From IMG/VR virus record IMGVR_UViG_2563366964_000003: DNA of 16,306 nucleotides; one strand, given 5' to 3'. The position numbers were made by a program, and so were the translations under genes. Within the stretch, counting starts at the first letter, position 1. Every line of letters starts with the position of its first letter. The notes beneath the pieces were generated by a model. It saw only the letters and a program-made list of their open reading frames with translations. It was not told the origin of the DNA and made no database searches. Source of the DNA: a virus. Taxonomy: Duplodnaviria; Heunggongvirae; Uroviricota; Caudoviricetes. This document shows positions 1 to 16,306 of this stretch, piece after piece.

Positions 1-1284
1 TTACTTCTTCGCCTCTGCAACCACTTTACTACCCACGCCGCGGTTATTGTATTCCCACATGCGGTTGTAGTTAGTGTCATTCAGATTGCGCTGTATTTCG
101 TCGTTATCATCTACGCTGCCGGTATTACCCGCAAACGGACGATTAGAGATCACCGCATCGGCCCACGGTTTAGCCGTGTTAAAACCTTCGTTGATGGCGC
201 TATCACGGATCACCACCTGACCGTTGGTATTGGCATCAACATCCAGCGAGCGGCCCAGTTGCGCCACACCATCACCGAAAGCATTGAAACGGCTGTTTAC
301 GGCGAGGAAACCGTAGTAAATGTTGGACAGCGTAGCCGGTGCAAACACATACGCTTCTTGCTGAGTACGTGAGTTCACCACGCGGAATTCGGTGTTATCG
401 AACACCACTGCGCCGCGACCAGAAACGATATCCACATCCCCTTCAATGTAGCTGTTGGTCACCAGCGTACGCGGCTGACGATTTGTTTCCAGACGGTTCT
501 GCACACCGCTGTTGGTGACAAAGAAGGTGTTCTGACGACCGAGAATGTTAACGTTGTTAATCTGTACCTGGTCACCATCAGTACGCAGTGCCACCGCCGG
601 ATGGTTACCTGCATCTACGCTATCGCCCAGCGTGTTTTCGATGGTCAGATTTTGCAGTTGCAGGCCATTGTTTTGTGACCAGAAGACCGCAGAGCAGAGA
701 ACACCGATACTGTCGCTGCGTTTGCTCTGGCAGCTATCGTACATATACCACGCTGGTTTACCTGGCATATATTTGCCGCGCGGGTTGACGTCGTGACGCC
801 AGTCGGCAGGGCTCATGCCACCATCAAGGGAAAGCCCAATCTTCACATCAATCGGTTTTTCACCTGTACCGTACAGAGTAATTCCACCCGGAGCGGCAGG
901 GACATATACCGTTCCCTGATACTCACCAGGCATCACGGCAATATACTGGCGCTTGTTGGTACGCTTGATAATTGCCGCATCTACCGCCGCCTGAATCGTG
1001 GTATGCGTTACACCTTGAGTGCCCGCCGGGCCGACAACAAAGTCAGGTTGCGCAGGCAGGGTAATCGGGGAAGGATTCCACGCTGCAGCACCTGGTGTCA
1101 GGGATGCAAAATAGTGTTGAGCATCGAAATTCTGCGCTTCTTTTGCCGACAGAATCGGGCGAGAAGAGGTACCAGGCGCGGTTTGATCAGAAGGACGTTG
1201 ATCGGGCGGGGTTGAGCTACAGGCGGTCAGCGTCACGCCAAAAGCCAATGCCAGCGCCAGACGGGAAACTGAAAATGTGTTCAC
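1..1284 (-). CDS. ybhC: YbhC, pectinesterase-family outer-membrane lipoprotein (putative acyl-CoA thioesterase); complete 427 aa with lipobox LTAC
   Basis: Full-length ORF whose translation matches remembered E. coli YbhC; signal peptide plus lipobox; known neighbour of attλ. Confidence 0.9.
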   Translation of the reverse strand: MNTFSVSRLALALAFGVTLTACSSTPPDQRPSDQTAPGTSSRPILSAKEAQNFDAQHYFASLTPGAAAWNPSPITLPAQPDFVVGPAGTQGVTHTTIQAAVDAAIIKRTNKRQYIAVMPGEYQGTVYVPAAPGGITLYGTGEKPIDVKIGLSLDGGMSPADWRHDVNPRGKYMPGKPAWYMYDSCQSKRSDSIGVLCSAVFWSQNNGLQLQNLTIENTLGDSVDAGNHPAVALRTDGDQVQINNVNILGRQNTFFVTNSGVQNRLETNRQPRTLVTNSYIEGDVDIVSGRGAVVFDNTEFRVVNSRTQQEAYVFAPATLSNIYYGFLAVNSRFNAFGDGVAQLGRSLDVDANTNGQVVIRDSAINEGFNTAKPWADAVISNRPFAGNTGSVDDNDEIQRNLNDTNYNRMWEYNNRGVGSKVVAEAKK

Positions 1285-1330: not shown

Positions 1331-1415
1331 GCTTTTTTATACTAAGTTGGCATTATAAAAAAGCATTGCTTATCAATTTGTTGCAACGAACAGGTCACTA
1401 TCAGTCAAAATAAAA
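1331..1415. other. attL: Prophage attL (B-O-P'): 15-bp λ att core GCTTTTTTATACTAA at 1331-1345, followed by P' arm with IHF H'-like site (tatcaatttgttg) and Int arm-type sites (aggtcactat, cagtcaaaat)
   Basis: Exact λ core sequence directly between host ybhC and phage int; P' arm motifs read directly from sequence. Confidence 0.85.
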
Positions 1416-1418
1416 TCA

Positions 1419-2489
1419 TTATTTGATTTCAATTTTGTCCCACTCCCTGCCTCTGTCATCACGATACTGTGATGCCATGGTGTCCGACTTATGCCCGAGA
1501 AGATGTTGAGCAAATTTATCGCTTATCTGCTTCTCATAGAGTCTTGCAGACAAACTGCGCAACTCGTGAAAGGTTGGCGGATCCCCTTCGAAGGAGAGAC
1601 CTGATGCTTTTCGTGCGCGCATAAAATACCTTGATACTGTGCCGGATGAAAGCGGTTCACGACGAGTAGATGCAATTATGGTTTCTCCGCCAAGAATCTT
1701 TTTGCATTTATCAAGTGTTTCCTTCATTGATATCCCGAGAGCATCAACATGCAATGTTGTTGGGATGGCAATTTTTACGCCTGTTTTGCTTTGCTCGACA
1801 TAAAGATATCCATCTACGATATCAGACCACTTCATTTCGCATAAATCACCAACTCGCTGCCCGGTAACAACAGCCAGTTCCATTGCAAGTCTAAGCCAAC
1901 ATGGTGATGATTCTGCTGCTTGATAAATTTTCAGGTATTCGTCAGCCGTAAGTCTTGATCTCCTTACCTCTGATTTTGCAGCGCGAGTGGCTGCGACCGG
2001 GTTTGTTGTTATATGGCCTTCAGCCATAGCCTCTCGGAATGCATCGCTCAGTGTTGATCTGATTAACTTGGCTGATGCCGCCTTTCCCTCGTCTATGTAT
2101 CCATTGAGCATTGCCGCAATTTCTTTTGTGGTGATGTCTTCAAGTGGAGCATCAGGCAGACCCCTCCTTATTGCTTTAATTTTGCTCATGTAATTTATGA
2201 GTGTCTTCTGCTTGATTCCTCTGCTGGCCAGGATTTTTTCGTAGCGATCAAGCCATGAATGTAACGTAACGGAATTATCACTGTTGATTCTCGCTGTCAG
2301 AGGCTTGTGTTTGTGTCCTGAAAATAACTCAATGTTGGCCTGTATAGCTTCAGTGATTGCGATTCGCCTGTCTCGGCCTAATCCAAACTCTTTACCCGTC
2401 CTTGGGTCCCTGTAGCAGTAATATCCATTGTTTCTTATATAAAGGTTAGGGGGTAAATCCCGGCGCTCATGACTTCGCCTTCTTCCCAT
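1419..2489 (-). CDS. int: Phage λ-type integrase (tyrosine recombinase), 356 aa
   Basis: Translation MGRRRSHERRDLPPNLYIRNNGYYCYRDPRTGKEF... matches λ Int from memory essentially throughout; adjacent to attL. Confidence 0.97.
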   Translation of the reverse strand: MGRRRSHERRDLPPNLYIRNNGYYCYRDPRTGKEFGLGRDRRIAITEAIQANIELFSGHKHKPLTARINSDNSVTLHSWLDRYEKILASRGIKQKTLINYMSKIKAIRRGLPDAPLEDITTKEIAAMLNGYIDEGKAASAKLIRSTLSDAFREAMAEGHITTNPVAATRAAKSEVRRSRLTADEYLKIYQAAESSPCWLRLAMELAVVTGQRVGDLCEMKWSDIVDGYLYVEQSKTGVKIAIPTTLHVDALGISMKETLDKCKKILGGETIIASTRREPLSSGTVSRYFMRARKASGLSFEGDPPTFHELRSLSARLYEKQISDKFAQHLLGHKSDTMASQYRDDRGREWDKIEIK

Positions 2490-2685
2490 TTCTGATCCTC
2501 TTCAAAAGGCTACCTGTTACTGGTCGATTTAAGTCAACCTTTACCGCTGATTCGTGGAACAGATATTCTCTTCCATCCTTAACCGGAGGAGGGAATATCC
2601 TGCATTCGCGCACCCATCGACGAACTGTTTCAAGGCTTCTTGGGCGTCGCTGGCGAGCGTTCCACTCCTGAAGTGTCAAGTACAT
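2467..2685 (-). CDS. xis: Excisionase Xis, 72 aa
   Basis: Translation MYLTLQEWNARQRRPRSLETVRRWVRECRIF... matches λ Xis; 23-bp overlap with int as in λ. Confidence 0.95.
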   Translation of the reverse strand: MYLTLQEWNARQRRPRSLETVRRWVRECRIFPPPVKDGREYLFHESAVKVDLNRPVTGSLLKRIRNGKKAKS

Positions 2686-2712
2686 CGCAAAGTCTCCGCA
2701 ATTACACGCAAG

Positions 2713-2733
2713 AAAAAACCGCCATCAGGCGGC
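2713..2733 (-). terminator. Putative intrinsic terminator on the minus strand (GC stem ccgcc/ggcgg, loop, then U6 tract), overlapping the stop of the 55-aa ORF
   Basis: Minus-strand RNA reads gccgccugauggcgg followed by uuuuuucu. Confidence 0.4.
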
Positions 2734-2892
2734 TTGGTGTTCTTTCAGTTCTTCAATTCGAATATTGGTTATGTCTGCATGTGCTATCTGCGCCCATATC
2801 ATCCAGTGGTCATAGCAGTCATTGATGTTCTCTGCTTCGATAACTCTGTTGAATGGTTCTCCATTCCATTCACCTGTGACTCGGAAGTGCAT
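2725..2892 (-). CDS. Small hypothetical protein, 55 aa (MHFRVTGEWNGEPFNRVIEAENINDCYDHWMIWAQIAHADITNIRIEELKEHQAA), in the position of a λ orf55-like gene upstream of xis
   Basis: ATG preceded by GGAG Shine-Dalgarno at about 8 nt; not in the ORF track because under 60 aa; stop codon lies in a terminator-like hairpin. Confidence 0.5.
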   Translation of the reverse strand: MHFRVTGEWNGEPFNRVIEAENINDCYDHWMIWAQIAHADITNIRIEELKEHQAA

Positions 2893-2968
2893 TTATCATC
2901 TCCATAAAACAAAACTCGCCGTAGCGAGTTCAGATATAATTTCCACCAAAGGCAGTAGTTGCTGATGC

Positions 2969-2976: not shown

Positions 2977-3031
2977 GGTGATGCTGCCAACTTACTGATT
3001 TAGTGTATGATGGTGTTTTTGAGGTGCTCCA

Positions 3032-3307
3032 GTGGCTTCTGTTTCTATCAGCTGTCCCTCCTGTTCAGCTACTGACGGGGTGGTGCGTAACGGCAAAAGC
3101 ACTGCCGGACATCAGCGCTATCTCTGCTCTCACTGCCGTAAAACATGGCAACTGCAGTTCACTTACACCGCTTCTCAACCCGGTACGCACCAGAAAATCA
3201 TTGATATGGCCATGAATGGCGTTGGATGCCGGGCAACCGCCCGCATTATGGGCGTTGGCCTCAACACGATTTTCCGCCATTTAAAAAACTCAGGCCGCAG
3301 TCGGTAA
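3032..3307 (+). CDS. insA: IS1 InsA (transposition repressor / N-terminal part of the InsAB' transposase), 91 aa
   Basis: Translation [43 protein letters not shown]... is canonical InsA. Confidence 0.92.
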
Positions 3308-3729
3308 CCTCGCGCATACAGCCGGGCAGTGACGTCATCGTCTGCGCGGAAATGGACGAACAGTGGGGATACGTCGGGGCTAAATCGCGCCAGCGCTGGC
3401 TGTTTTACGCGTATGACAGGCTCCGGAAGACGGTTGTTGCGCACGTATTCGGTGAACGCACTATGGCGACGCTGGGGCGTCTTATGAGCCTGCTGTCACC
3501 CTTTGACGTGGTGATATGGATGACGGATGGCTGGCCGCTGTATGAATCCCGCCTGAAGGGAAAGCTGCACGTAATCAGCAAGCGATATACGCAGCGAATT
3601 GAGCGGCATAACCTGAATCTGAGGCAGCACCTGGCACGGCTGGGACGGAAGTCGCTGTCGTTCTCAAAATCGGTGGAGCTGCATGACAAAGTCATCGGGC
3701 ATTATCTGAACATAAAACACTATCAATAA
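3226..3729 (+). CDS. insB: IS1 insB reading frame (expressed as the InsAB' transposase by -1 frameshift at the A6C motif, about 3285-3291)
   Basis: Translation ...[50 protein letters not shown]... is canonical InsB; slippery aaaaaac present in the insA/insB overlap. Confidence 0.88.
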
Positions 3730-3744
3730 GTTGGAGTCATTACC

Positions 3745-4207: not shown

Positions 4208-4546
4208 TTATATCATTAATTTTGTTTCGTGCCAGCCTTTGGTCACCCAGCATTGTGAGTCACCATTACACGGGCATGAATTAACAGGAACTCTCTCGCC
4301 GCACTTACCGCAACGTTTTCTGCTGATCGATTTTATACGCCAGCGCACACGTGCATCATCCTGGCGGCTCAGTAACGCGATGTACTCACCAAACTCGTAA
4401 GGCGCATGCCTGAAGCGGCGCGTGGCTCAGTTACGATCCAGCATTTCAATTTCCTGAGCATCAAGTACAAGCTCCAGCTTACGCATACCGGATGATGCTT
4501 GCTTGGCTCTCTGATCGACTTTGCGCTCTGCTGATGATTTAGCCAT
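4208..4546 (-). pseudogene. Opal-interrupted small ORF: 39 codons (MAKSSAERKVDQRAKQASSGMRKLELVLDAQEIEMLDRN), in-frame TGA at 4427-4429, then 72 further in-frame codons ending in a CxxC...CxC zinc-ribbon-like tail; possibly ea8.5-like
   Basis: AGGAAA Shine-Dalgarno before the ATG; open reading continues in the same frame after the TGA to TAA at 4208-4210. Confidence 0.45.
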
Positions 4547-4740
4547 TCTGCTTTTCCTGCATTAGGAGAAAGACAATCATGGCGGCGCGGATACTTCCGG
4601 TATCTTTTTACTCGATATTACCCTTCAATGGCACATACAAGAAGAGAGCCATCAACAGGAGTGAGTGAGGAATCGACAACCAGCAACGCTTAATTATCTA
4701 TAGTGTCGTATTTGCTTCATAAAATATGGCGAATAACACA

Positions 4741-5454: not shown

Positions 5455-5752
5455 TGTAATTTCCTTTTACTTTTTACAAAGCGTTTAATCATGGCTGATT
5501 ATCTTTAAGCGTAGTAACAGCCTTGTGCGAAACATGTTACCAAATCGCCATTTCAGTGTATCCGCAGTTAGGCTGCCACTTCAAGGATTCCTAATTACAT
5601 GGTACGTAAGCGTAAAATCCCGTTGGTTGTCGGGTAATAACTCTGATCAAATCTCCCTTGTCTTTTGCTCTTACGTATGCAGCTCTTGTGTATTCAACCC
5701 AGGCCTCCAGTTCAGCAATACGCTTACTTCCATCCGAGATAACACCTTCTAC

Positions 5753-6004
5753 TCACGCTGCTCGTTGAGTTTTGATTTTTGCTGTCTCCAGCTCAACACG
5801 CAGTTTCCTCACCGTTAGCGCAATATCCTCGTTCTCCTGGTCGCGGCGTTTGATGTACTGCTGGTTTCTTTCCCGTTCATCCAGCAGTGTCAGCACAATC
5901 GATGGTGTTACCAGCTCATGGAAAAGGTCCGCGTCAAATCCCCAGTTGTCATGCATTGCCTGCTCTGCCGCTTCACGCAGTGCCTGAGAGTGAATTACGC
6001 TCAC
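5753..6004 (-). CDS. Hypothetical early-left protein, 83 aa as written, in the position of λ ea22; frame stays open for 50 more codons after the TGA stop (to 5592), so this may be an opal-truncated longer gene
   Basis: GTG start overlapping the upstream stop (GTGA coupling); coiled-coil-like C-terminus; in-frame continuation read by hand. Confidence 0.55.
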   Translation of the reverse strand: MSVIHSQALREAAEQAMHDNWGFDADLFHELVTPSIVLTLLDERERNQQYIKRRDQENEDIALTVRKLRVELETAKIKTQRAA

Positions 6005-6222
6005 TTCGAACCTCTCTGTTTACTGATAAGTTCCAGATCCTCCTGGCAACTTGCACAAGTCCGACAACCCTGAACGGCCAGGCGTCTTCGTTCATCTATC
6101 GGATCGCCACACTCACAACAATGAGTGGCAGATATAGCCTGGTGGTTCAGGCGGCGCATTTTTATTGCTGTGTTGCGCTGTAATTCTTCAATTTCTGATG
6201 CTGAATCAATGATGTCTGCCAT
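6001..6222 (-). CDS. DksA/TraR-family C4 zinc-finger protein, 73 aa (λ Orf73-like)
   Basis: CxxC ... CxxC spacing (CCECGDPI ... CRTCASC) and size typical of TraR; location in the leftward early operon. Confidence 0.8.
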   Translation of the reverse strand: MADIIDSASEIEELQRNTAIKMRRLNHQAISATHCCECGDPIDERRRLAVQGCRTCASCQEDLELISKQRGSK

Positions 6223-6320
6223 CTTTCATTAATCCCTGAATTGTTGGTTAATACGCTTGAGGGTGAATGCGAATAATAAAAAAGGAGCCTGTAGCTCCCT
6301 GATGATTTTGCTTTTCATGT

Positions 6321-6602
6321 TCACCGTTCCTTAAAAACGCCGTTTAACATGCCGATTGCTAGACTTAAATGAGTCGGTGTGAATCCCATCAGCGTTACCG
6401 TTTCGCGGTGCTTCTTCAGTACGCTACGGCAAATGTCATCGACGTTTTTATCCGGAAACTGCTGTCTGGCTTTTTTGATTTCAGAATTAGCCTGACGGGC
6501 AATGCTGCGAAGGGCGTTTTCCTGCTGAGGTGTCACTGAACAAGCCCCATGTCGGCAAGCATAAGCACACAGAATATGAAGCCCGCTGCCAGAAAAATGC
6601 AT
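6321..6602 (-). CDS. Hypothetical small early-left protein (93 aa from the first ATG; true start may be internal)
   Basis: ORF in the same orientation and operon as exo and the TraR-like gene; no recognisable domain; weak Shine-Dalgarno at the first ATG. Confidence 0.4.
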   Translation of the reverse strand: MHFSGSGLHILCAYACRHGACSVTPQQENALRSIARQANSEIKKARQQFPDKNVDDICRSVLKKHRETVTLMGFTPTHLSLAIGMLNGVFKER

Positions 6603-6612
6603 TCAGTGGTTG

Positions 6613-6804
6613 TCATACCTGGTCTCTCTCATCTGCTTCTGCTTTCGCCACCATCATTTCCAGTTTTTGTGAAAGGGATGTGGCTAACGTATGAAATTCT
6701 TCGTCTGTTTCTACTGGTATTGGCACAAACCTGATTCCAATTTGAGCAAGGCTATGTGCCATCTCGATACTCGTTCTTAACTCAACAGGAGATGCTTTGT
6801 GCAT
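6613..6804 (-). CDS. Small early-left protein, 63 aa (position and size of λ orf63)
   Basis: ORF of 63 codons immediately downstream of the orf60a-like ORF in the leftward operon. Confidence 0.5.
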   Translation of the reverse strand: MHKASPVELRTSIEMAHSLAQIGIRFVPIPVETDEEFHTLATSLSQKLEMMVAKAEADERDQV

Positions 6805-6965
6805 ACAGCCCCTCGTTTATTATTTATCTCCTCAGCCAGCCGCTGTGCTTTCAGTGGATTTCGGATAACAGAAAGGCCGGGAAATACCCAGCCTCGCTTT
6901 GTAACGGAGTAGACGAAAGTGATTGCGCCTACCCGGATATTATCGTGAGGATGCGTCATCGCCAT
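6777..6965 (-). CDS. Small early-left protein, 62 aa (position of λ orf60a), start overlapping the exo stop
   Basis: ORF directly following exo in the same orientation; short overlaps typical of the λ operon. Confidence 0.45.
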
Positions 6966-7636
6966 TGCTCCCCAAATACAAAACCAATTTCAGCCAGTGC
7001 CTCGTCCATTTTTTCGATGAACACCGGCACCATCTCGTCAAAACTCGCCATGTACTTTTCATCCCGCTCAACCACGACATAATGCAGTCCTTCACGCTTC
7101 ATACGCGGGTCATAGTTGGCAAAGTACCAGGCATCTTTTCGTGTCACCCACATGCTGTACTGCACCTGGGCCATGTAAGCCGACTTTATGGCCTCGAAAC
7201 CACCGAGCCGGAACTTCATGAAATCCCGGGAGGTAAACGGGCATTTCAGCTCAAGGCCATTGCCGTCACTGCATAAACCATCGGGAGAGCAGGCGGTGCG
7301 CATACTTTCGTCGCGATAGATGATCGGGGATTCAGTAACATTCACGCCGGAAGTGAATTCAAACAGGGTTCTGGCGTCGTTCTCGTACTGTTTTCCCCAT
7401 GCCAGCGCCTTAGCATTAACTTCCGGAGCCACACCGGTGCAAACCTCAGCCAGCAGGGTGTGGAAGTAGGACATTTTCATGTCAGGCCACTTCTTTCCTG
7501 AGCGGGGCTTGGCTATCACGTTGTGAACTTCTGAAGCGGTGATGACGCCGAGCCGTAATTTGTGCCATGCATCATCCCCCTGTTCGACAGCTCTCACGTC
7601 GATCCCGGTACGCTGCAGGATAATGTCCGGTGTCAT
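6956..7636 (-). CDS. exo: λ exonuclease (Redα), 226 aa, intact
   Basis: Translation [50 protein letters not shown]... matches λ Exo over its full length. Confidence 0.97.
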
Positions 7637-8079
7637 GCTGCCACCTTCTGCTCAGTGGCTTTCTGTTTCAGGAATCCAAGAGCTTTCACTGCTTCGGCCT
7701 GTGTCAGTTCTGACGATGCGCGAATGTCGCGGCGAAATATCTGGGAACAGAGCGGCAATAAGTCGTCATCCCATGTTTTGTCCAGGGCAATCAGCAGAGT
7801 GTTAATCTCCTGCATGGTTTCATCGTTAACCGGAGTAATGTCGCGTTCCGGCTGACGTTCTGCGGTGTATGCGGTATTTTCGACAATGCGCTCGGCTTCA
7901 TCCTTGTCATAGATACCAGCAAATCCGAAGGCCAGACGGGCACACTGAATCATGGCTTTATGCCGTAACATCCGTTTGGGATGCGACTGCCACGGCCCCG
8001 TAATTTCTCTGCCTTCGCGGGTTTTGAATGGTTCGCGGCGGCATTCATCCATCCACTCGGTAACGCAGATCGGATGATT
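7633..8079 (-). pseudogene. bet: bet (Redβ) 3' fragment: C-terminal part only (...NHPICVTEWMDECRREPFKTREGREITGPW...KVAA); N-terminal third missing
   Basis: C-terminal translation matches λ Bet; upstream of codon N (8079-8077) the frame hits TAG and homology to Bet is lost. Confidence 0.9.
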
Positions 8080-8201
8080 ACCGGTTCGCTACCAGGGAAG
8101 AACGGGAAGGAAAGGTGAGCACGAATCTGATTTTCAAGGAGTGTCGCCAGAGTGCCGCGATGAAGCGGGTGTTGGCATTTTATCGCGGCAATTTTCAATA
8201 G
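8079..8201 (+). pseudogene. ren: ren 3' remnant (encodes ...YRFATREEREGKVSTNLIFKECRQSAAMKRVLAFYRGNFQ), fused directly to the bet truncation point
   Basis: Plus-strand frame matches my recollection of the λ Ren C-terminus (YRFATREEREGKMSTNLVFKECRQSAAMKRVLA...); recall-based. Confidence 0.6.
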
Positions 8202-8238
8202 ACTATGTACATAAAAATATCATTTTTTTAATACATGT

Positions 8239-8430
8239 CTAATTATTGGACGAAATTGGTTTTTGCTTTGGTTTAGTTAGCCTAGCAATCAAGCCAGAGG
8301 CAATAATGATGATCCAAGCAATTTGATGCAATGCTACTCCAATATAAGAACCTTTATAGATAATAAAGGCATAGATCGCTAGAAACGAAATAAATATCCA
8401 TAACGAAAGTTGATAAATTTTGGCGCGCAT
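8239..8430 (-). CDS. Possible small membrane protein (63 aa from ATG; two hydrophobic segments)
   Basis: ORF in AT-rich cargo DNA, divergent from the lipoprotein operon; weak Shine-Dalgarno; could be a chance ORF in AT-rich sequence. Confidence 0.3.
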   Translation of the reverse strand: MRAKIYQLSLWIFISFLAIYAFIIYKGSYIGVALHQIAWIIIIASGLIARLTKPKQKPISSNN

Positions 8431-8686
8431 ATTTAATCCAATCAATCAGAAAGACGAGTAATCATAGAGGTACTATCACCCGGGTAACTATTGCTATTAT
8501 GAACGGATAGGATAGAGGCTTCAATAACATATGCATCAAGTATGATGGAATATGTAGGTGAAAATGACTTGTGTCAAATTTGTGGAAATGAGTACCATGT
8601 TTCTCTGAAATTGATGTCGTTAATGGCTAGTGATAGTGAACTTTTTTACTTTATAATTCCTTTGGTTATAACAATAAGGTAAATTT

Positions 8687-9247
8687 ATGAAGAAGATAAT
8701 ATTATTAGCCATGATTATTGGTTCTTTAACAGGTTGCGCTAGTGTGCCACCATTGAATTTTTCAACACCTAACGTGGGAGTTAGCCAGAAAAAAATAGAT
8801 GCTGAAATTAAGTCATTAACGGTATCACTTGCTCGTCCAGATGAGCAGAAAGGGGATATCACTGCTGGTATGGAGGCTATAACTCCAATTTGGCGTGAAT
8901 CTTTGCAGGAAGCACTCGACCGAATGACTATTTTTCGTGATAGTTCACCAAATACGGTTAGCTTAAATGTTAAAGTGTTGGCTCTTGACGTTCCTGCTTT
9001 TGGTGTTTCAATGACAACTAAAGCAATTGCAAGGTATGAAATAATCAACCGTGCGAATGGTGATATTATATATACGCAGGATATTGAGTCTACCGGTACT
9101 GTTCCAGCCAGTTACGCATTCTACGGTATTGTTCGAGCACGCGAATCTGTTAATCGCGCGGTGCAAAACAACATAACGCAGTTCTTGCAAGCATTAGAAA
9201 GTGTTGATCTTTCTCGTCCAATGTTTCCTGTTAGGGTAGCTAAATGA
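8687..9247 (+). CDS. Lipoprotein of unknown family, 186 aa (signal peptide plus lipobox LTGC)
   Basis: MKKIILLAMIIGSLTGC lipobox; AAGG Shine-Dalgarno; stop overlaps the start of the next gene (ATGA). Confidence 0.75.
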   Translation: MKKIILLAMIIGSLTGCASVPPLNFSTPNVGVSQKKIDAEIKSLTVSLARPDEQKGDITAGMEAITPIWRESLQEALDRMTIFRDSSPNTVSLNVKVLALDVPAFGVSMTTKAIARYEIINRANGDIIYTQDIESTGTVPASYAFYGIVRARESVNRAVQNNITQFLQALESVDLSRPMFPVRVAK

Positions 9248-9696
9248 AGCGATTATTCGTAATTGCTCCACTCTTAGTGTTGGTTGGATGCGCACAAAAT
9301 ATATCGCCAAATAGTTATTCTGTTGGCTCTGTGGGCATGGTTAATCGAACTATCGCTGGTACAGTTATTAGTGCTAGGGGGGTTGATATCAGTGGGACTT
9401 CCGCGTTAGGCGGGACTGCTGGGGCTGCCGTGGGGGCAACCGCTGGTTCTGCGCTTGGTGGGGGAGTTCGTTCTAATATCGTTGGTGCCGTTGGTGGTGC
9501 AGTCATTGGTGGTATTGCCGGGGCAGCAATCGAATCTTCAGCAACAAAACAAACAGGCATGGAATATGTTGTCGAAACTGAGAATGGGAATTTAATGACC
9601 ATTGTTCAAGGCAAAGATCCGTTATTTACTCAAGGAAGTAAGGTCCTTGTTTTATACGGAAACCCTTCTCGCATAATAACAGACCCGCGTCACTAA
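9244..9696 (+). CDS. SlyB/Pcp-like glycine-zipper outer-membrane lipoprotein, 150 aa (lipobox LVGC)
   Basis: Lipobox; glycine-zipper stretch (IVGAVGGAVIGGIAGAAI); C-terminal KQTGMEYVVETENGNLMTIVQGK resembles the SlyB C-terminal region (KTQGVELEIRKDDGNTIMVVQKQ) as I recall it. Confidence 0.8.
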   Translation: MKRLFVIAPLLVLVGCAQNISPNSYSVGSVGMVNRTIAGTVISARGVDISGTSALGGTAGAAVGATAGSALGGGVRSNIVGAVGGAVIGGIAGAAIESSATKQTGMEYVVETENGNLMTIVQGKDPLFTQGSKVLVLYGNPSRIITDPRH

Positions 9697-9788
9697 CATA
9701 CCTTTTGATTTTGTAAAATCAATTCGTAATAATAAAGTCATCGGAGCTTGAACAACTCCGGTGACTTCTGCGCTAAACGGGGACGTTT

Positions 9789-9890
9789 ATGCGCACATAC
9801 AATCCAAACTCTCTTCTCCCTTCACAGATGCAGAAATGCACCTGCGATTTTTTGCATCCAGCGTCTGACCTCTGCGGAGGTGAAGCGTGA
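9789..9890 (+). CDS. ylcH: Small DLP12-type protein YlcH-like, 33 aa ([33 protein letters not shown])
   Basis: Short ORF whose stop overlaps the ybcN GTG start; resembles remembered YlcH. Confidence 0.55.
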
Positions 9891-10342
9891 ACCTACCACA
9901 AGATGGCATCAAACTGCATCGCGGTAACTTCACCGCTATCGGCCAGCAGATCCAGCCTTATCTGGAGGACGGAAAATGCTTTCGCATGGTGCTTAAACCG
10001 TGGCGTGAGAAACGCAGTCTTTCCCAGAATGCACTCAGCCACATGTGGTACAGCGAAATCAGTGAATACCTCATCAGCAGGGGGAAATCGTTCGCTACCG
10101 CAGCATGGGTAAAAGATGCTCTCAAACACACATACCTCGGTTATGAAACCAAGGACCTGGTTGATGTCGTAACCGGCGAAATCACTACTATCCAGTCGTT
10201 ACGCCATACCTCCGATCTTGATACCGGAGAGATGTATATCTTCCTGTGTAAGGTTGAAGCCTGGGCGGTGAATATTGGCTGCCACCTGACTATTCCGCAG
10301 AGCTGCGAGTTCCAGCAGCTCCGCGACAAACAGGAGGCGTAA
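9887..10342 (+). CDS. ybcN: YbcN, DLP12-type prophage protein (DNA base-flipping protein), 151 aa, GTG start
   Basis: Translation [48 protein letters not shown]... matches YbcN from memory. Confidence 0.9.
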
Positions 10343-10512
10343 TGGCTACACCGCTTATTCGTGTCATGAACGGACACATCTACAGAGTACCAAATCGTCG
10401 TAAGCGTAAACCGGAGCTGAAGCCTTCCGAAATACCAACACTGCTCGGATATACCGCCAGCCTGGTTGATAAAAAATGGTTGCGACTGGCAGCAAGGAGG
10501 AGTCATGGCTGA
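10342..10512 (+). CDS. ninE: NinE, 56 aa
   Basis: [56 protein letters not shown]; TAATG overlap with ybcN; under 60 aa so absent from the ORF track. Confidence 0.85.
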   Translation: MATPLIRVMNGHIYRVPNRRKRKPELKPSEIPTLLGYTASLVDKKWLRLAARRSHG

Positions 10513-10795
10513 TTTGAGAAAAGCAGCGCGTGGTCGGGAATGCCAGGTAAGAATCCCTGGCGTATGTAATGGCAACCCTGAAACGTCTGTACTGGCACAT
10601 ATCCGGCTGACTGGATTGTGCGGCACCGGTACGAAACCGCCAGACCTGATTGCCACCATTGCATGTTCTGCCTGCCACGACGAAATCGACCGCCGCACAC
10701 ATTTTGTCGATGCTGCATATGCAAAAGAATGCGCGCTGGAAGGTATGGCGAGAACACAGGTTATCTGGCTGAAAGAGGGGGTTATTAAGGCGTGA
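10505..10795 (+). CDS. ybcO: YbcO, DLP12-type nuclease-like protein (DUF1364), 96 aa
   Basis: [35 protein letters not shown]... with conserved Cys motifs; ATG at 10505 inside the longer tracked ORF. Confidence 0.9.
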
Positions 10796-11154
10796 ATACC
10801 TACAGCATCACATTACCCTGGCCTCCGAGCAATAATCGCTATTACCGCCATAATCGCGGGCGCACACACATCAGCGCAGAAGGGCAGGCATACCGCGATA
10901 ACGTCACCCGAATCATTAAAAACGCAATGCTGGATATCGGCCTGGCTATGCCAGTGAAAATCCGTATTGAGTGCCACATGCCGGATCGCCGTCGCCGTGA
11001 CCTGGATAATCTGCAAAAAGCCGCTTTTGACGCACTCACCAAAGCAGGTTTCTGGCTGGATGATGCTCAGGTCGTTGATTACCGCGTTGTGAAGATGCCT
11101 GTTACCAAAGGTGGGAGGCTGGAACTGACCATCACCGAAATGGGGAATGAATGA
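10792..11154 (+). CDS. rusA: RusA Holliday-junction resolvase, 120 aa, GTG start overlapping the ybcO stop
   Basis: Translation [38 protein letters not shown]... matches RusA. Confidence 0.95.
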
Positions 11155-11291
11155 TGTTTGAGTTTAATATGGCAGAACTTCTTCGCCACCGCTGGATGCG
11201 CCTGCGCTTATATCGTTTCCCCAGTTCTGTTTTGACCGATTACCGAATACTGAGGAATTACGCCAAAACCCTGACAGGAGCAGGAGTATGA
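11151..11291 (+). CDS. ylcG: YlcG-like small protein, 46 aa ([46 protein letters not shown])
   Basis: Short ORF overlapping the rusA stop; matches remembered DLP12 YlcG. Confidence 0.7.
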
Positions 11292-11376
11292 AGTCAGAGA
11301 TAACAATCAACTAATACTGTTTTATTGATTTTTGCTTGTAATTGGCGTTCTGGTCTGATTTTTGTGGAGTAAGTTG

Positions 11377-11760
11377 ATGCGTGATATTCAGATGGTTCTT
11401 GAGCGTTGGGGAGCGTGGGCGGCTAATAATCATGAAGATGTGACCTGGTCGTCCATTGCCGCCGGTTTTAAGGGATTAATTACTTCAAAAGTAAAATCTC
11501 GCCCGCAATGTTGTGACGATGACGCGATGATCATTTGCGGGTGCATGGCCCGTCTGAAAAAGAACAACAGCGATTTGCACGATTTATTAGTAGATTATTA
11601 TGTAGTCGGTATGACATTCATGTCACTGGCAGGTAAGCATTGCTGCTCTGATGGTTATATCGGGAAAAGGTTACAGAAGGCTGAGGGTATAATTGAAGGG
11701 ATGTTAATGGCATTAGATATCCGGTTAGAGATGGATATCGTTGTTAATAACTCTAATTAA
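11377..11760 (+). CDS. quuD: Late-gene antiterminator Q (QuuD-type), 127 aa
   Basis: [33 protein letters not shown]... with Cys-rich zinc-binding region; matches DLP12 Q. Confidence 0.9.
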
Positions 11761-11775
11761 TATGCCAATTGTTTA

Positions 11776-11811
11776 CTAAAAATTATTAAAAATGGGGCGT
11801 TGAGACGCCCC
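11776..11811 (-). terminator. Hairpin GGGGCGT-tgag-ACGCCCC with a U-rich tail on the minus strand; probable terminator for nmpC
   Basis: Perfect 7-bp GC-rich stem at 11794-11811; minus-strand RNA follows it with auuuuuaauaauuuuu. Confidence 0.5.
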
Positions 11812-11899
11812 CAAAAATAAAGGGTAATATATAACAGAAGGTTTATATAGTTAGAAGCAAGGTTGTGCTCCTAAAGGAAGTGGCTTGAGGGAGCCACTT

Positions 11900-11939
11900 A
11901 TATGTTGGGGAGGCAAAGCCTCCCCAACATATCTTTTAG
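11900..11939 (+). terminator. Strong hairpin (atatgttggggaggc-aaa-gcctccccaacatat) followed by cttttag; probable tR'-type terminator downstream of the Q-dependent late promoter region
   Basis: 15-bp perfect stem with T-run on the plus strand, between Q and the convergent nmpC. Confidence 0.55.
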
Positions 11940-11947
11940 TAATCAAA

Positions 11948-13030
11948 TTAGAACTGGTAAACCATACCTACAGCAACGATATCATCGGTAGCAACGCCAG
12001 ATGCTTTCGTGAAATCGCTCTTATCAATCAGGTTGATTTTGTAATCAACAAAAGTGGACATATTTTTGTTGAAGTAATAGGTTGCACCTACATCAATATA
12101 TTCAACCAGGTCCTGATCACCCCACGCACCCAAGTCTTTTCCTTTAGATTGCAGGTAAGCAACGGACGGACGCAGACCGAAGTCGAACTGATATTGTGCA
12201 ACTACTTCGAAGTTTTGTGCTTTGTTGGCAATATGGTTATTACCAAAAACAGTCATGTTCTGGGTTTCAGAATAGGTGGTAGCCAGATAGATGTTGTTCG
12301 CATCATATTTCAGACCAGCTGCCCATACTTCAGCATTTTGACCAGATGCATTCAGGCTGTTGTTACCGTAGATAACCTGATTATTAGTGCGGTCAGATTT
12401 AGCATAGGTTGCACCTACACCGAATCCTTCATACTCATAAGTAGTGGAGAAACCGAAACCATCACCATTAGCTTCAGTTACGTCAGTGCGGTCATTTTTA
12501 CCCTGATACTGAGCAGCAAAGTTCAGACCATCAACCAGACCAAAGAAGTCATTGTTACGATAAGTTGCAACACCTGTGGTGCGACCAGTCATGAATACAT
12601 CTGTTTGGGTCCAGGTATCGCCACCGAATTCTGGCAGAACGTCGGTCCATGCACCAATATCGTATGCTACACCGTAGTTACGGCCATAATCGATGGAGCC
12701 GTAGTCACCGAATTTCAGGCCAGCGAAGGCAAGACGGGTTTTATCTTTGGAGGAACCTTGAGATTCAGCGCGGTTGCCTTTGAATTCATATTCCCACTGA
12801 CCGAAACCAGTCAGTTGATCGTTGATTTGGGTTTCACCTTTGAAGCCAAGACGGGCATAAGTAGTATCACCATCATCTGCATCATTAGAGGAGAAGTAGT
12901 GCTTAGCATTAACTTTCCCGTACAGATCCAGCTTGTTACTGTCTTTATTATAAATTTCAGCTGCCTGAGCAGACATCGCCATCAGTACTGATGCAGCTAC
13001 AGCAGAAATTGCCACTGTTAATTTTTTCAT
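11948..13030 (-). CDS. nmpC: OmpC/OmpF-family general porin (NmpC/OmpD-like), about 360 aa with signal peptide; apparently intact
   Basis: Signal peptide [23 protein letters not shown]; porin motifs; C-terminal ...VAVGMVYQF; AAGGG Shine-Dalgarno. The tracked ORF starts 20 codons upstream but MKKL is the plausible start. Confidence 0.9.
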
Positions 13031-13456
13031 CGTGAGCCCTTTTTTTGAACTATTATTAAAAAATGATGTCACTGCGCGATAAATATTCATCTAATCAATG
13101 TGATTATTTCAAGATGTAAGTTTTGCTTTCTCATTTGATTTGTGAAGTAGATCTCTATTTTTATCTGAACTTTTTCTATCGAATCCTATTCATGGCTCTT
13201 GGCTGAATAAAAATAAATCTATTAGCCAATTTATATTAATGGCTGTTATTTATAAGTGCTCTATAATTTGAAGATTCAATTTAAACCAGCTAAAAATAAC
13301 GCTGGAAATTATTTGTTGGTTATTTGTTGAGATTTGCTTATGTATTTGTAGTGGTGTTTTCAATACTCGGTAGCATTCTCGCAAATATCATTTAGTGGTT
13401 TACGTACGTAAAAAATTGGTTATGCTGTTAAGAGTGGTTACTTCGTCACACAGCTT

Positions 13457-13489
13457 AAACCCGCCGTCGAGCGGGTTTTTCCATTTTTT
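13457..13489 (+). terminator. Intrinsic terminator (aaacccgc-cgtcga-gcgggttt followed by ttccatttttt) upstream of the lysis cassette
   Basis: 8-bp stem plus T-tract on the plus strand. Confidence 0.55.
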
Positions 13490-13617
13490 GAGTCTCGATA
13501 TTAGCTGATAACCCAATACCTGAGTTATTCACTGACTCCGAGTCTGTTACGTTTCTGCTTTTTTGCGATACGTTGTATTCCCTCAATTTACACCCGCTTT
13601 GTCTGCGAGGTGGGGTT

Positions 13618-13833
13618 ATGAAATCCATGGATAAGTTAACAACGGGTGTCGCCTATGGCACCTCAGCAGGTAGTGCCGGTTACTGGTTTTTACAGCTGCT
13701 CGATAAAGTCACGCCCTCACAGTGGGCAGCAATAGGTGTGCTGGGTAGCCTGGTATTTGGCCTGCTGACGTACCTGACAAACCTTTATTTCAAGATTAAA
13801 GAAGATAAGCGCAAGGCTGCGAGAGGTGAATAA
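13618..13833 (+). CDS. essD: Holin (phage-21 S-type pinholin), 71 aa with dual-start MKSM motif
   Basis: [71 protein letters not shown]. Confidence 0.9.
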
Positions 13834-14330
13834 TGCCTCCATCATTACGAAAAGCCGTTGCTGCTGCTATTGGTGGCGGAGCAATTGCTATAGCATCAGT
13901 GTTAATTACTGGCCCAAGTGGTAACGATGGTCTGGAAGGTGTCAGCTACGTACCATACAAAGATATCGTTGGCGTATGGACTGTATGTCACGGACACACC
14001 GGAAAAGACATCATGCTCGGTAAAACGTATACCAAAGCAGAATGCAAAGCACTCTTGAATAAAGACCTTGCCACTGTCGCCAGACAAATTAACCCGTACA
14101 TCAAAGTCGATATACCGGAAACAACGCGCGGCGCTCTTTACTCATTCGTTTACAACGTGGGTGCTGGCAATTTCAGAACATCGACGCTTCTTCGCAAAAT
14201 AAACCAGGGCGATATCAAAGGCGCATGTGATCAGCTACGTCGCTGGACATATGCTGGCGGTAAGCAATGGAAAGGTCTCATGACTCGTCGTGAGATTGAG
14301 CGTGAAATCTGTTTGTGGGGTCAGCAATGA
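13833..14330 (+). CDS. rrrD: SAR endolysin (lysozyme) with N-terminal signal-anchor-release domain, 165 aa
   Basis: Gly/Ala-rich SAR N-terminus followed by T4-lysozyme-like catalytic region; matches DLP12 and phage-21 R. Confidence 0.93.
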
Positions 14331-14788
14331 ACAGAGTAACCGCGATTATCTCCGCTCTGGTTATCTGCATCATCGTCTACCTGTCATGGGCTGTTAATCA
14401 TTACCGTGATAACGCCATTACCTACAAAGCCCAGCGCGACAAAAATGCCAGAGAACTGAAGCTGGCGAACGCGGCAATTACTGACATGCAGATGCGTCAG
14501 CGTGATGTTGCTGCGCTCGATGCAAAATACACGAAGGAGTTAGCTGATGCGAAAGCTGAAAATGATGCTCTGCGTGATGATGTTGCCGCTGGTCGTCGTC
14601 GGTTGCACATCAAAGCAGTCTGTCAGTCAGTGCGTGAAGCCACCACCGCCTCCGGCGTGGATAATGCAGCCTCCCCCCGACTGGCAGACACCGCTGAACG
14701 GGATTATTTCACCCTCAGAGAGAGGCTGATCACTATGCAAAAACAACTGGAAGGAACCCAGAAGTATATTAATGAGCAGTGCAGATAG
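14327..14788 (+). CDS. rzpD: Rz i-spanin (inner-membrane spanin), 153 aa
   Basis: N-terminal TM segment plus coiled-coil; ATG at 14327 overlapping the rrrD stop. Confidence 0.9.
14547..14729 (+). CDS. rzoD: Rz1 o-spanin lipoprotein, 60 aa, embedded in the +1 frame of Rz; proline-rich
   Basis: [20 protein letters not shown] lipobox and PPPPP tract, wholly inside rzpD. Confidence 0.85.
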
Positions 14789-14819
14789 AGTTGCCCATAT
14801 CGATGGGCAACTCATGCAA

Positions 14820-15113
14820 TTATTGTGAGCAATACACACGCGCTTCCAGCGGAGTATAAATGCCTAAAGTAATAAAACCGAGCAATCCATTTACGAATGT
14901 TTGCTGGGTTTCTGTTTTAACAACATTTTCTGCGCCGCCACAAATTTTGGCTGCATCGACAGTTTTCTTCTGCCCAATTCCAGAAACGAAGAAATGATGG
15001 GTGATGGTTTCCTTTGGTGCTACTGCTGCCGGTTTGTTTTGAACAGTAAACGTCTGTTGAGCACATCCTGTAATAAGCAGGGCCAGCGCAGTAGCGAGTA
15101 GCATTTTTTTCAT
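14820..15113 (-). CDS. borD: Bor lipoprotein (serum-resistance-associated outer-membrane lipoprotein), 97 aa
   Basis: MKKMLLATALALLITGCAQQTFTVQNKPAAVAPKETITHHFFVSGIGQKKTVD... matches Bor. Confidence 0.93.
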   Translation of the reverse strand: MKKMLLATALALLITGCAQQTFTVQNKPAAVAPKETITHHFFVSGIGQKKTVDAAKICGGAENVVKTETQQTFVNGLLGFITLGIYTPLEARVYCSQ

Positions 15114-15403
15114 GGTGTTATTCCCGATGCTTTTTGAAGTTCGCAGAATCGTATGTGTAGAAAATTAAACAAACCCTAAACAATGAGTTGAAATTTCATA
15201 TTGTTAATATTTATTAATGTATGTCAGGTGCGATGAATCGTCATTGTATTCCCGGATTAACTATGTCCACAGCCCTGACGGGGAACTTCTCTGCGGGAGT
15301 GTCCGGGAATAATTAAAAACGATGCACACAGGGTTTAGCGCGTACACGTATTGCATTATGCCAACGCCCCGGTGCTGACACGGAAGAAACCGGACGTTAT
15401 GAT

Positions 15404-15814
15404 TTAGCGTGGAAAGATTTGTGTAGTGTTCTGAATGCTCTCAGTAAATAGTAATGAATTATCAAAGGTATAGTAATATCTTTTATGTTCATGGATATTT
15501 GTAACCCATCGGAAAACTCCTGCTTTAGCAAGATTTTCCCTGTATTGCTGAAATGTGATTTCTCTTGATTTCAACCTATCATAGGACGTTTCTATAAGAT
15601 GCGTGTTTCTTGAGAATTTAACATTTACAACCTTTTTAAGTCCTTTTATTAACACGGTGTTATCGTTTTCTAACACGATGTGAATATTATCTGTGGCTAG
15701 ATAGTAAATATAATGTGAGACGTTGTGACGTTTTAGTTCAGAATAAAACAATTCACAGTTTAAATCTTTTCGCACTTGATCGAATATTTCTTTAAAAATG
15801 GCAACCTGAGCCAT
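15404..15814 (-). CDS. ybcV: YbcV-like DUF1398 protein (136 aa from the ATG with GGAAGG Shine-Dalgarno; the open frame extends upstream to a GTG at 15937)
   Basis: Translation ...[47 protein letters not shown]... matches DLP12 YbcV; start chosen on ribosome-binding-site quality. Confidence 0.8.
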
Positions 15815-16099
15815 TGGTAAAACCTTCCATGTGATACGAGGGCGCGTAGTTTGCATTATCGTTTTTATCGTTTCAATCTGGTCTGACCTCTTTGTGTTTT
15901 GTTGATGATTTATGTCAAATATTAGGAATGTTTTCACTTAATAGTATTGGTTGCGTAACAAAGTGCGGTCCTGCTGGCATTCTGGAGGGAAATACAACCG
16001 ACAGATGTATGTAAGGCCAACGTGCTCAAATCTTCATACAGAAAGATTTGAAGTAATATTTTAACCGCTAGATGAAGAGCAAGCGCATGGAGCGACAAA

Positions 16100-16306
16100 A
16101 TGAATAAAGAACAATCTGCTGATGATCCCTCCGTGGATCTGATTCGTGTAAAAAATATGCTTAATAGCACCATTTCTATGAGTTACCCTGATGTTGTAAT
16201 TGCATGTATAGAACATAAGGTGTCTCTGGAAGCATTCAGAGCAATTGAGGCAGCGTTGGTGAAGCACGATAATAATATGAAGGATTATTCCCTGGTGGTT
16301 GACTGA
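16100..16306 (+). CDS. ybcW: YbcW-like small protein, 68 aa
   Basis: [68 protein letters not shown]; divergent from ybcV. Confidence 0.8.

Follow-up and report, generated by a model that had tools for sequence, protein, structure and literature searches.

The bet/ren junction described here is very probably the scar of an illegitimate, microhomology-mediated deletion in a lambdoid prophage residing at att-lambda. The window (the whole stretch of DNA that was analysed, 16,306 nucleotides in length) is Escherichia coli chromosome in which a lambdoid prophage lies to the right of ybhC, and the consequence of the deletion is an element with neither a repressor gene nor replication genes. Within this element, bet runs directly into ren, a short sequence is shared by the two genes at the join, and no mobile element is present there. 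The prophage has the attributes of a cryptic lambdoid prophage: it is bounded by att sites, its immunity and replication functions are absent, and its truncated genes are colinear with the corresponding genes of intact relatives. The junction is thus an ordinary deletion scar in a cryptic lambdoid prophage, representing a known and common type of decay that is visible in public annotation. The coordinates of the features are collected in Table 1.

Table 1. Features of the window and the blocks that it shares with phage lambda
Feature	Position	Strand	Basis or content
ybhC, chromosomal, gal side of att-lambda	1..1284	-	RefSeq annotation of the identical NCTC9040 stretch; ORF list
attL: 15-bp core GCTTTTTTATACTAA (1331-1345) and P' arm	1331..1491	+	exact core match
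int, full length, 356 aa	1419..2489	-	351/356 identical to lambda Int; no internal stop
xis, full length, 72 aa	2467..2685	-	71/72 identical to lambda Xis; no internal stop
exo, full length, 226 aa	6956..7636	-	222/226 identical to lambda Exo; no internal stop
bet', 5'-truncated	7633..8081	-	tblastn, translation, Pfam RecT, PGAP
Crossover of the proposed deletion, ATTAC	8077..8081	.	three-way alignments with lambda, Turner and PhiR30_1
'ren, 5'-truncated, last 39 codons and stop	8082..8201	+	tblastn, PHROG 142, PGAP
AT-rich moron block after ren	8202..9696	.	same order after intact ren in PhiR30_1, TUM1887 and strain 38
Moron ORF, 68 aa	8239-8445	-	
Moron ORF, 186 aa	8687-9247	+	PHROG 12521; called 'acyltransferase' in PhiR30_1
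Moron ORF, 150 aa, glycine-zipper lipoprotein-like	9244-9696	+	PHROG 13877
DLP12-like nin/Q arm: ybcN, ninE, ybcO, rusA, ylcG, quuD	9887..11760	+	95-97% to K-12 DLP12
Lambda block 1	1331-2940		lambda 27724-29333; att core, int, xis
Lambda block 2	5706-8085		lambda 30094-32476; ea22 to mid-bet
Lambda block 3	8068-8176		lambda 40440-40548; ren
Lambda block 4	14327-16306		lambda 45966-47944; Rz, bor onward

The crossover was located by ungapped three-way alignments, in which the bet side was compared with lambda and phage Turner and the ren side with lambda and PhiR30_1. These alignments map it to a 5-bp microhomology, ATTAC, at 8077-8081; the two copies of this motif lie at lambda 32469-32473 on the bet side and at lambda 40449-40453 on the ren side, and one copy is kept in the window. 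The initial annotation had placed the junction at about 8079, which is accurate to within this motif, and had proposed an alignment with lambda and DLP12 as the means of finding the exact breakpoint and any microhomology. In addition to ATTAC itself, such alignment reveals an imperfect match of 11/14 positions around it (8068-8081, GATCGGATGATTAC vs GAACGGTGTATTAC). BLAST comparison of the window with lambda yields four colinear blocks, and at the scar lambda position 32473 is now joined to 40454, leaving lambda 32474-40453 (7,980 bp) without a counterpart in the window. Assuming equal base frequencies, a microhomology of at least 5 bp would be expected at a random join with a probability of approximately 0.005. 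No insertion sequence, att-like site or long homology was found at the bet/ren join, the nearest IS1 (2977-3744) being 4.3 kb away, and an IS-mediated deletion was accordingly ruled out. A 5-bp ATTAC set within an 11/14 match and unaccompanied by any of these features is the signature of illegitimate short-homology recombination. Considering that 5 bp is short, the join could also reflect end-joining with fortuitous homology.

Both sides of the junction consist of truncated genes. On the minus strand, positions 8079-7636 encode Bet residues 114-261 with 99.3% identity to lambda Bet (tblastn, E=4e-99), and the translation lacks the first 113 codons. The Pfam RecT match is limited to profile positions 125-195 of 198, indicating that the N-terminal part of Bet is missing, and PGAP labels the corresponding gene in the near-identical strain NCTC9040 as 'recombinase RecT, incomplete, missing N-terminus'. 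On the plus strand, tblastn aligns positions 8067-8198 with residues 54-92 of lambda Ren (85% identity, E=2e-18) and with residues 54-97 of TUM1887 Ren (93%, E=8e-24), and the segment also matches PHROG 142, 'Ren-like exclusion protein' (E=2e-14). The ren remnant is 91% identical to lambda at the DNA level and ends with a stop codon at 8199-8201, approximately 57 codons having gone from its 5' end; its PGAP label in NCTC9040 is 'protein ren, incomplete, missing N-terminus'. The junction therefore already appears in the RefSeq annotation (PGAP) as two abutting partial genes. Both halves of the original description, namely minus-strand Bet homology ending at about 8079 and plus-strand homology to the Ren C-terminus beginning at the junction, were reproduced by these searches, and the plus-strand segment is indeed derived from ren. 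Chance similarity is ruled out by the E-values obtained for Bet (4e-99) and Ren (8e-24).

Since both remnants are truncated at their 5' ends and diverge from the junction, no upstream sequence can drive either of them. A sigma-70 promoter scan detected no site at the junction, which rules out a new promoter created by the join, and the four promoter-like sites in 7500-8800 are no excess over the shuffled expectation of 3.2 +/- 1.8. A fusion ORF across the junction was likewise rejected, as the first ATG of the bet frame is at 8052, within bet; an 82-aa ORF at 7950-8198 on the minus strand is in a different frame from bet and found no support. We regard bet' and 'ren as dead pseudogenes without a function of their own. 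The window contains no functional Red module (exo, bet and gam), with Bet lacking residues 1-113 and gam being absent, and exo, deprived of the annealing domain of Bet and of Gam, would presumably be unable to perform Red recombination.

The proposed course of events starts from an ancestor that would have combined a lambda-type left arm (attL, int, xis, exo, bet) with a right arm of the DLP12/PhiR30_1 type (ren, morons, nin, Q, lysis). The ATTAC in bet would have been joined to the ATTAC in ren, through either replication slippage or end-joining, with excision of the intervening DNA. Such an event would have removed the 113 5' codons of bet, gam, kil, the early leftward and rightward promoters with their operators, the repressor gene, cro and the gene for a cII-like activator, together with O and its origin, P and the first approximately 57 codons of ren. 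Consistent with an internal deletion, both junction flanks are continuous with complete genes in relatives (98-99% identity in TUM1887). An alternative is that the junction is a hybrid joint, that is, a chromosomal rearrangement between a lambda-like prophage at att-lambda and a DLP12-like prophage elsewhere, which would agree with a left arm that is 97-98% lambda-like and a right arm that is 95-97% DLP12-like. However, the same combination of arms stands uninterrupted at the same site in TUM1887 and in strain 38, bet and ren have no extended homology to support homologous exchange, and the NCTC9040 element is bounded by attL at ybhC and by attR at ybhB and bioA, the usual surroundings of att-lambda. 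The hybrid-joint explanation is scarcely credible and already largely refuted.

The number of steps is a separate matter. Of the initial statement that one deletion had fused the middle of bet to the end of ren, the fusion itself stands, but a single event is only the most economical reading and is unprovable from the final junction. The exact pre-deletion ancestor was not found, the best candidates being TUM1887 (98-99%) and PhiR30_1 (99.8%, right side only); since no ancestor with 100%-identical flanks is at hand, the single step is deduced rather than demonstrated. The present junction might instead be the last of at least two successive deletions, in which an initial, smaller inactivating lesion was subsequently extended. 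Stepwise erosion is real in this element, given that a nested 452-bp deletion arose later beside the junction in six of its carriers, that IS1 copies come and go among carriers, and that head and tail genes are also missing in NCTC9040. Nevertheless, a survey of 5,426 complete E. coli genomes turned up no intermediate with a smaller deletion, the ATTAC junction is identical in every carrier, and the bet-to-ren segment is uninterrupted in the intact relatives, which makes a multi-step origin unlikely. An internal microhomology-mediated deletion, most economically in one step, is the reading retained below.

To define what was lost, 25 proteins from lambda, the TUM1887 prophage and PhiR30_1 were used as tblastn queries against the window and the whole NCTC9040 prophage. 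The queries comprised gam, kil, cIII, N, cI, cro, cII, O, P, rexA, sieB, bet and ren of lambda; gam, a kil-like protein, the S24 repressor, cro, YdaT, O, P and ren of TUM1887; and cI, cro and two hypothetical proteins from the immunity region of PhiR30_1. The sole matches in both targets were Bet 114-261 and Ren 54-end. In particular, gam, kil, cIII, N, cI, cro, cII, O and P gave no tblastn match in the window or in the NCTC9040 prophage (23.4 kb), and Pfam and PHROG scans of the unnamed ORFs of the window returned no repressor or replication family. The view that the prophage has neither repressor nor replication genes is thus upheld by tblastn for the window and the near-identical NCTC9040 prophage, and no immunity genes reside elsewhere in the latter.

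The accompanying claim that the genes from gam to P had been eliminated holds as far as their absence by tblastn is concerned, but its list of genes had been drawn by analogy with lambda. Lambda is a poor yardstick for the lost region, because the closest intact relatives (the TUM1887 prophage and PhiR30_1) carry a different immunity region, with an S24-type repressor, cro, a YdaT/cII-like gene, O and P. In TUM1887 the interval bounded by the two ATTAC sites begins with the 5' part of bet and ends with that of ren, and it holds in between gam, a kil-like gene, genes for an S24-peptidase repressor and a cro-like regulator, a cII-like gene with a YdaT domain, O and P. The loss expressed in TUM1887 terms amounts to 5,036 bp between these sites, compared to 7,980 bp in lambda terms.

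On the left of the scar, lambda homology starts exactly at the attL core, and core plus P' arm are identical to lambda 27724-27884 at 161/161 positions. The integrase differs from that of lambda by I155M, H164P, A245T, I248V and E264K, substitutions that do not fall on the catalytic residues of lambda Int (R212, K235, H308, R311, H333 and Y342). Judging from the full-length ORFs and the 161/161 match, exo, int, xis and attL appear intact, as the initial annotation had stated; its placement of the element at att-lambda with a lambda-type int also proved correct, since the element adjoins ybhC and 351/356 Int residues are identical. The IS1 copy at 2977-3744 is inserted between a small lambda orf 3' of xis and a DUF2513 gene and is missing in several otherwise identical carriers. 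Further pseudogenes in the early-left region are additional signs of decay: at 4208-4546 a hypothetical gene is broken by an internal stop, 4621-4686 holds 66 bp of a 'DNA repair protein' gene, and an ea22-like fragment at 5705-5956 is frameshifted.

On the right of the scar, the moron block has a GC content of 0.32-0.41, compared to approximately 0.53 in the red genes, and its PHROGs are of unknown function. The nin/Q arm that comes after it is now severed from pR. The porin gene at 11948-13030 (minus strand; annotated as ompC and homologous to DLP12 nmpC) is uninterrupted, the K-12 copy being split by IS5. An Rfam scan of the window at gathering thresholds detected no structured RNA.

The remainder of the prophage was examined in NCTC9040, which shows 99.98-100% identity to the window apart from one extra IS1 at approximately window 6385-6394, in a 93-aa gene annotated as ZapA that is intact in the window. 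In this strain the prophage is 23,426 bp long and begins with the integrase, excisionase, IS1, small early-left genes, exonuclease, partial RecT and, on the opposite strand, partial ren; these are followed by two hypothetical genes, ybcN, ninE, ybcO, rusA, ylcG, quuD, porin, essD, rrrD, rzpD, bor, ybcV and ybcW. A cos site identical to that of lambda lies to the right of the window's end (NCTC9040 locus coordinates 29643-29687), and beyond it (locus 29952-36756) come a tail-fibre gene, a tail-fibre assembly gene, an AraC-family regulator gene, IS fragments and attR. The direct succession of cos and tail-fibre genes indicates that a second large deletion removed the terminase, head and tail-shaft genes in NCTC9040. 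A search for attR at the other prophage end had been recommended initially, and in NCTC9040 it is indeed present beside ybhB, beyond the window. Its core matches at 14/15 positions, its B' arm is canonical and its P arm is identical to lambda at 137/165 positions, with most of the P-arm differences falling within approximately 55 nt next to the core.

A search of 5,426 complete E. coli genomes with an 83-bp probe across the scar recovered the complete junction in 24, and a 121-bp probe found it in none of 50,697 phage records. Because the same junction occurs in 24 independently assembled complete genomes, an assembly artefact is ruled out. Among the carriers are NCTC reference strains as well as isolates of human, pig, chicken, wild-bird and opossum origin. 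Those that were inspected have the element at the ybhC site, with essentially 100% identity to the window, a pattern compatible with a single event of fairly recent date that was passed down within a lineage. By the same token, carriers so alike render the intact state of int, xis and exo uninformative on selection since the deletion.

Erosion has continued at this locus. In six of the 24 carriers (NCTC9087, NCTC9100, FDAARGOS_1248, 200112, E423 and RM10410), a nested deletion of 452 bp spans window 7611-8062 with a CGGTA join; it removes bet' almost completely, together with the start of exo, the ATTAC scar being kept, and shows ongoing stepwise erosion of the element. Comparable losses are found in sister prophages. 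MB06021 and MLI110 carry, at the same site, a prophage whose left arm is about 3% diverged and in which bet is cut at the equivalent of window 8063 and joined to mid-ybcN with GGTAA microhomology (bet'/'ybcN; MB06021 locus 9040-9044). Strain 38 (one genome) has a separate bet'/'P deletion with ren intact (locus ~9170). The immunity/replication module is therefore lost repeatedly and independently in sister att-lambda prophages. Three of the deletion endpoints (ATTAC-ren, GGTAA-ybcN and CGGTA-exo) fall within 24 bp of bet, at 8058-8081, raising the idea of a recurrent endpoint hotspot in att-lambda prophages; as a pattern of three events noticed post hoc, it is doubtful. If true, it would imply that a local DNA, replication or transcription feature channels inactivating deletions to this position. 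A hairpin or quasi-palindrome as the cause of the clustering found no support, the DNA fold of 8035-8095 being not significant (z=-1.24).

With regard to function, the loss of operators, repressor, N, O, P and the origin would, by lambda biology, leave the element non-inducible and non-replicating and unable to confer immunity. In addition, pL/N-dependent transcription and the cII activator of pI are lost, and spontaneous excision by int and xis should consequently be rare, except where Int and Xis are provided by a lambda-type helper; int, xis and exo are probably silent. The 14/15 core and diverged P arm of attR may impair excision for a second reason. These considerations bear on the notion that the retained attL, int, xis, cos, attR, Q and lysis genes constitute a selected, helper-dependent mobilisable element, with the deletion as streamlining. 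Intact int, xis and attL, a cos identical to lambda in NCTC9040 and the presence of attR would all be in keeping with it. On the other hand, the carriers are essentially identical, so that intact genes may simply have lacked time to decay; the exo start is already lost in six of them; the element has no replicon; and the carriers inspected all have it at the same ybhC site, with no sign of mobility. The packaging size of lambda is roughly 37-52 kb, and 23.4 kb is well below it. Taken with the diverged attR P arm, this makes a selected mobilisable element highly improbable, and a plain deletion scar remains the preferred explanation.

A selective benefit for the host may nonetheless have accompanied the deletion. 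Kil is a further host-killing function of lambda, and a bet-to-ren deletion would remove kil, P and killing by in situ replication in one event. Induction of a chromosomal lambda fragment extending from cIII to ren kills rapidly via in situ replication, P is toxic in trans, and survivors of induction carry lesions in O or P (PMC3640518). The disappearance of host-killing functions offers a plausible selective reason for the retention of the deletion, as well as for its recurrence in sister prophages and in DLP12. The remnant would be expected to keep eroding while staying a source of homology for incoming lambdoid phages.

The scar is a clean marker of lineage (present in 24 of the 5,426 complete genomes) and documents the disarming of an att-lambda prophage to the base. 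Together with the nested and independent deletions, it provides a tidy case from nature of a prophage decaying step by step through deletions at short homologies, involving no new biology, and the deletions in sister prophages illustrate repeated loss of the host-killing module. In practical terms, att-lambda is occupied in the carrier strains, which also contain intact lambda int and xis and long stretches of lambda homology, and tools for lambda-based integration or recombineering could be affected as a result. The element may also provide recombination sequence to incoming lambdoid phages (PMC3945230).

Cryptic or 'grounded' prophages are known to lose modules by deletion and to act as recombination reservoirs for incoming phages (PMC6379469; PMC3945230), and the element can be compared with several such systems. 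The initial annotation had drawn a parallel with the exoD/renD pseudogenes of K-12 DLP12, which is valid in kind: like the window element, DLP12 is a defective lambdoid prophage whose immunity and replication functions were lost by internal deletion, leaving two divergent, 5'-truncated genes that abut. It fails in detail, since the DLP12 junction is exoD'/peaD', connecting a 264-bp exo remnant (corresponding to approximately window 7235) with a 312-bp P remnant, and renD is full length but split by IS3C; the window element has a complete exo, a bet'/'ren junction and no P remnant. Moreover, DLP12 resides at argU with an intD-type integrase, whereas the present element is at att-lambda with a lambda-type int; its xisD is a pseudogene; and it carries emrE, ybcK, ybcL and ybcM where the window has the morons of 8202-9696. 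The nin, Q, porin, essD, rrrD, rzpD, bor and ybcV/W arm of DLP12 shows 95-97% DNA identity to window 9703-16306. With respect to membership of DLP12, the element hence possesses the ybcN-ybcW arm and lacks the argU/intD location, the exoD'/peaD' junction and the IS3-split renD.

Lambda itself (NC_001416) agrees with the window in gene order, in an identical attL and in int, xis, exo and the bet remnant (97-99%), and differs in that the nin/Q/lysis arm of the window is of the DLP12 type up to Rz-bor. The TUM1887 prophage occupies the same ybhC site, with a left arm 98% and a right arm 98.8% identical to the window and the same morons after ren. PhiR30_1, a viable phage, is 99.8% identical to window 8068-9800, with a complete ren preceded by P, O, cII, cro and cI; its integrase is of the DLP12 type, unlike the lambda-type enzyme of the window. 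In contrast to the window element, TUM1887 and PhiR30_1 keep complete bet, gam, kil, repressor, cro, cII-like, O, P and ren genes. PhiR30_1 (PV340558.1) also has the full DLP12-like arm of nin, Q, porin, lysis, bor and ybcV/W genes, with an omptin gene at its right end, and looks like a functional relative of the cryptic prophage DLP12 of K-12. Finally, deletion survivors of laboratory lambda lysogens, resistant to replicative killing or defective in kil and P, resemble the window element in having lost O, P and ori (PMC3640518) as well as the killing functions of the pL operon, which renders the prophage harmless; those survivors were selected from cI857 lysogens, whereas the event in the window is a natural one, on which selection may have acted, and int, xis and the att sites have been retained.
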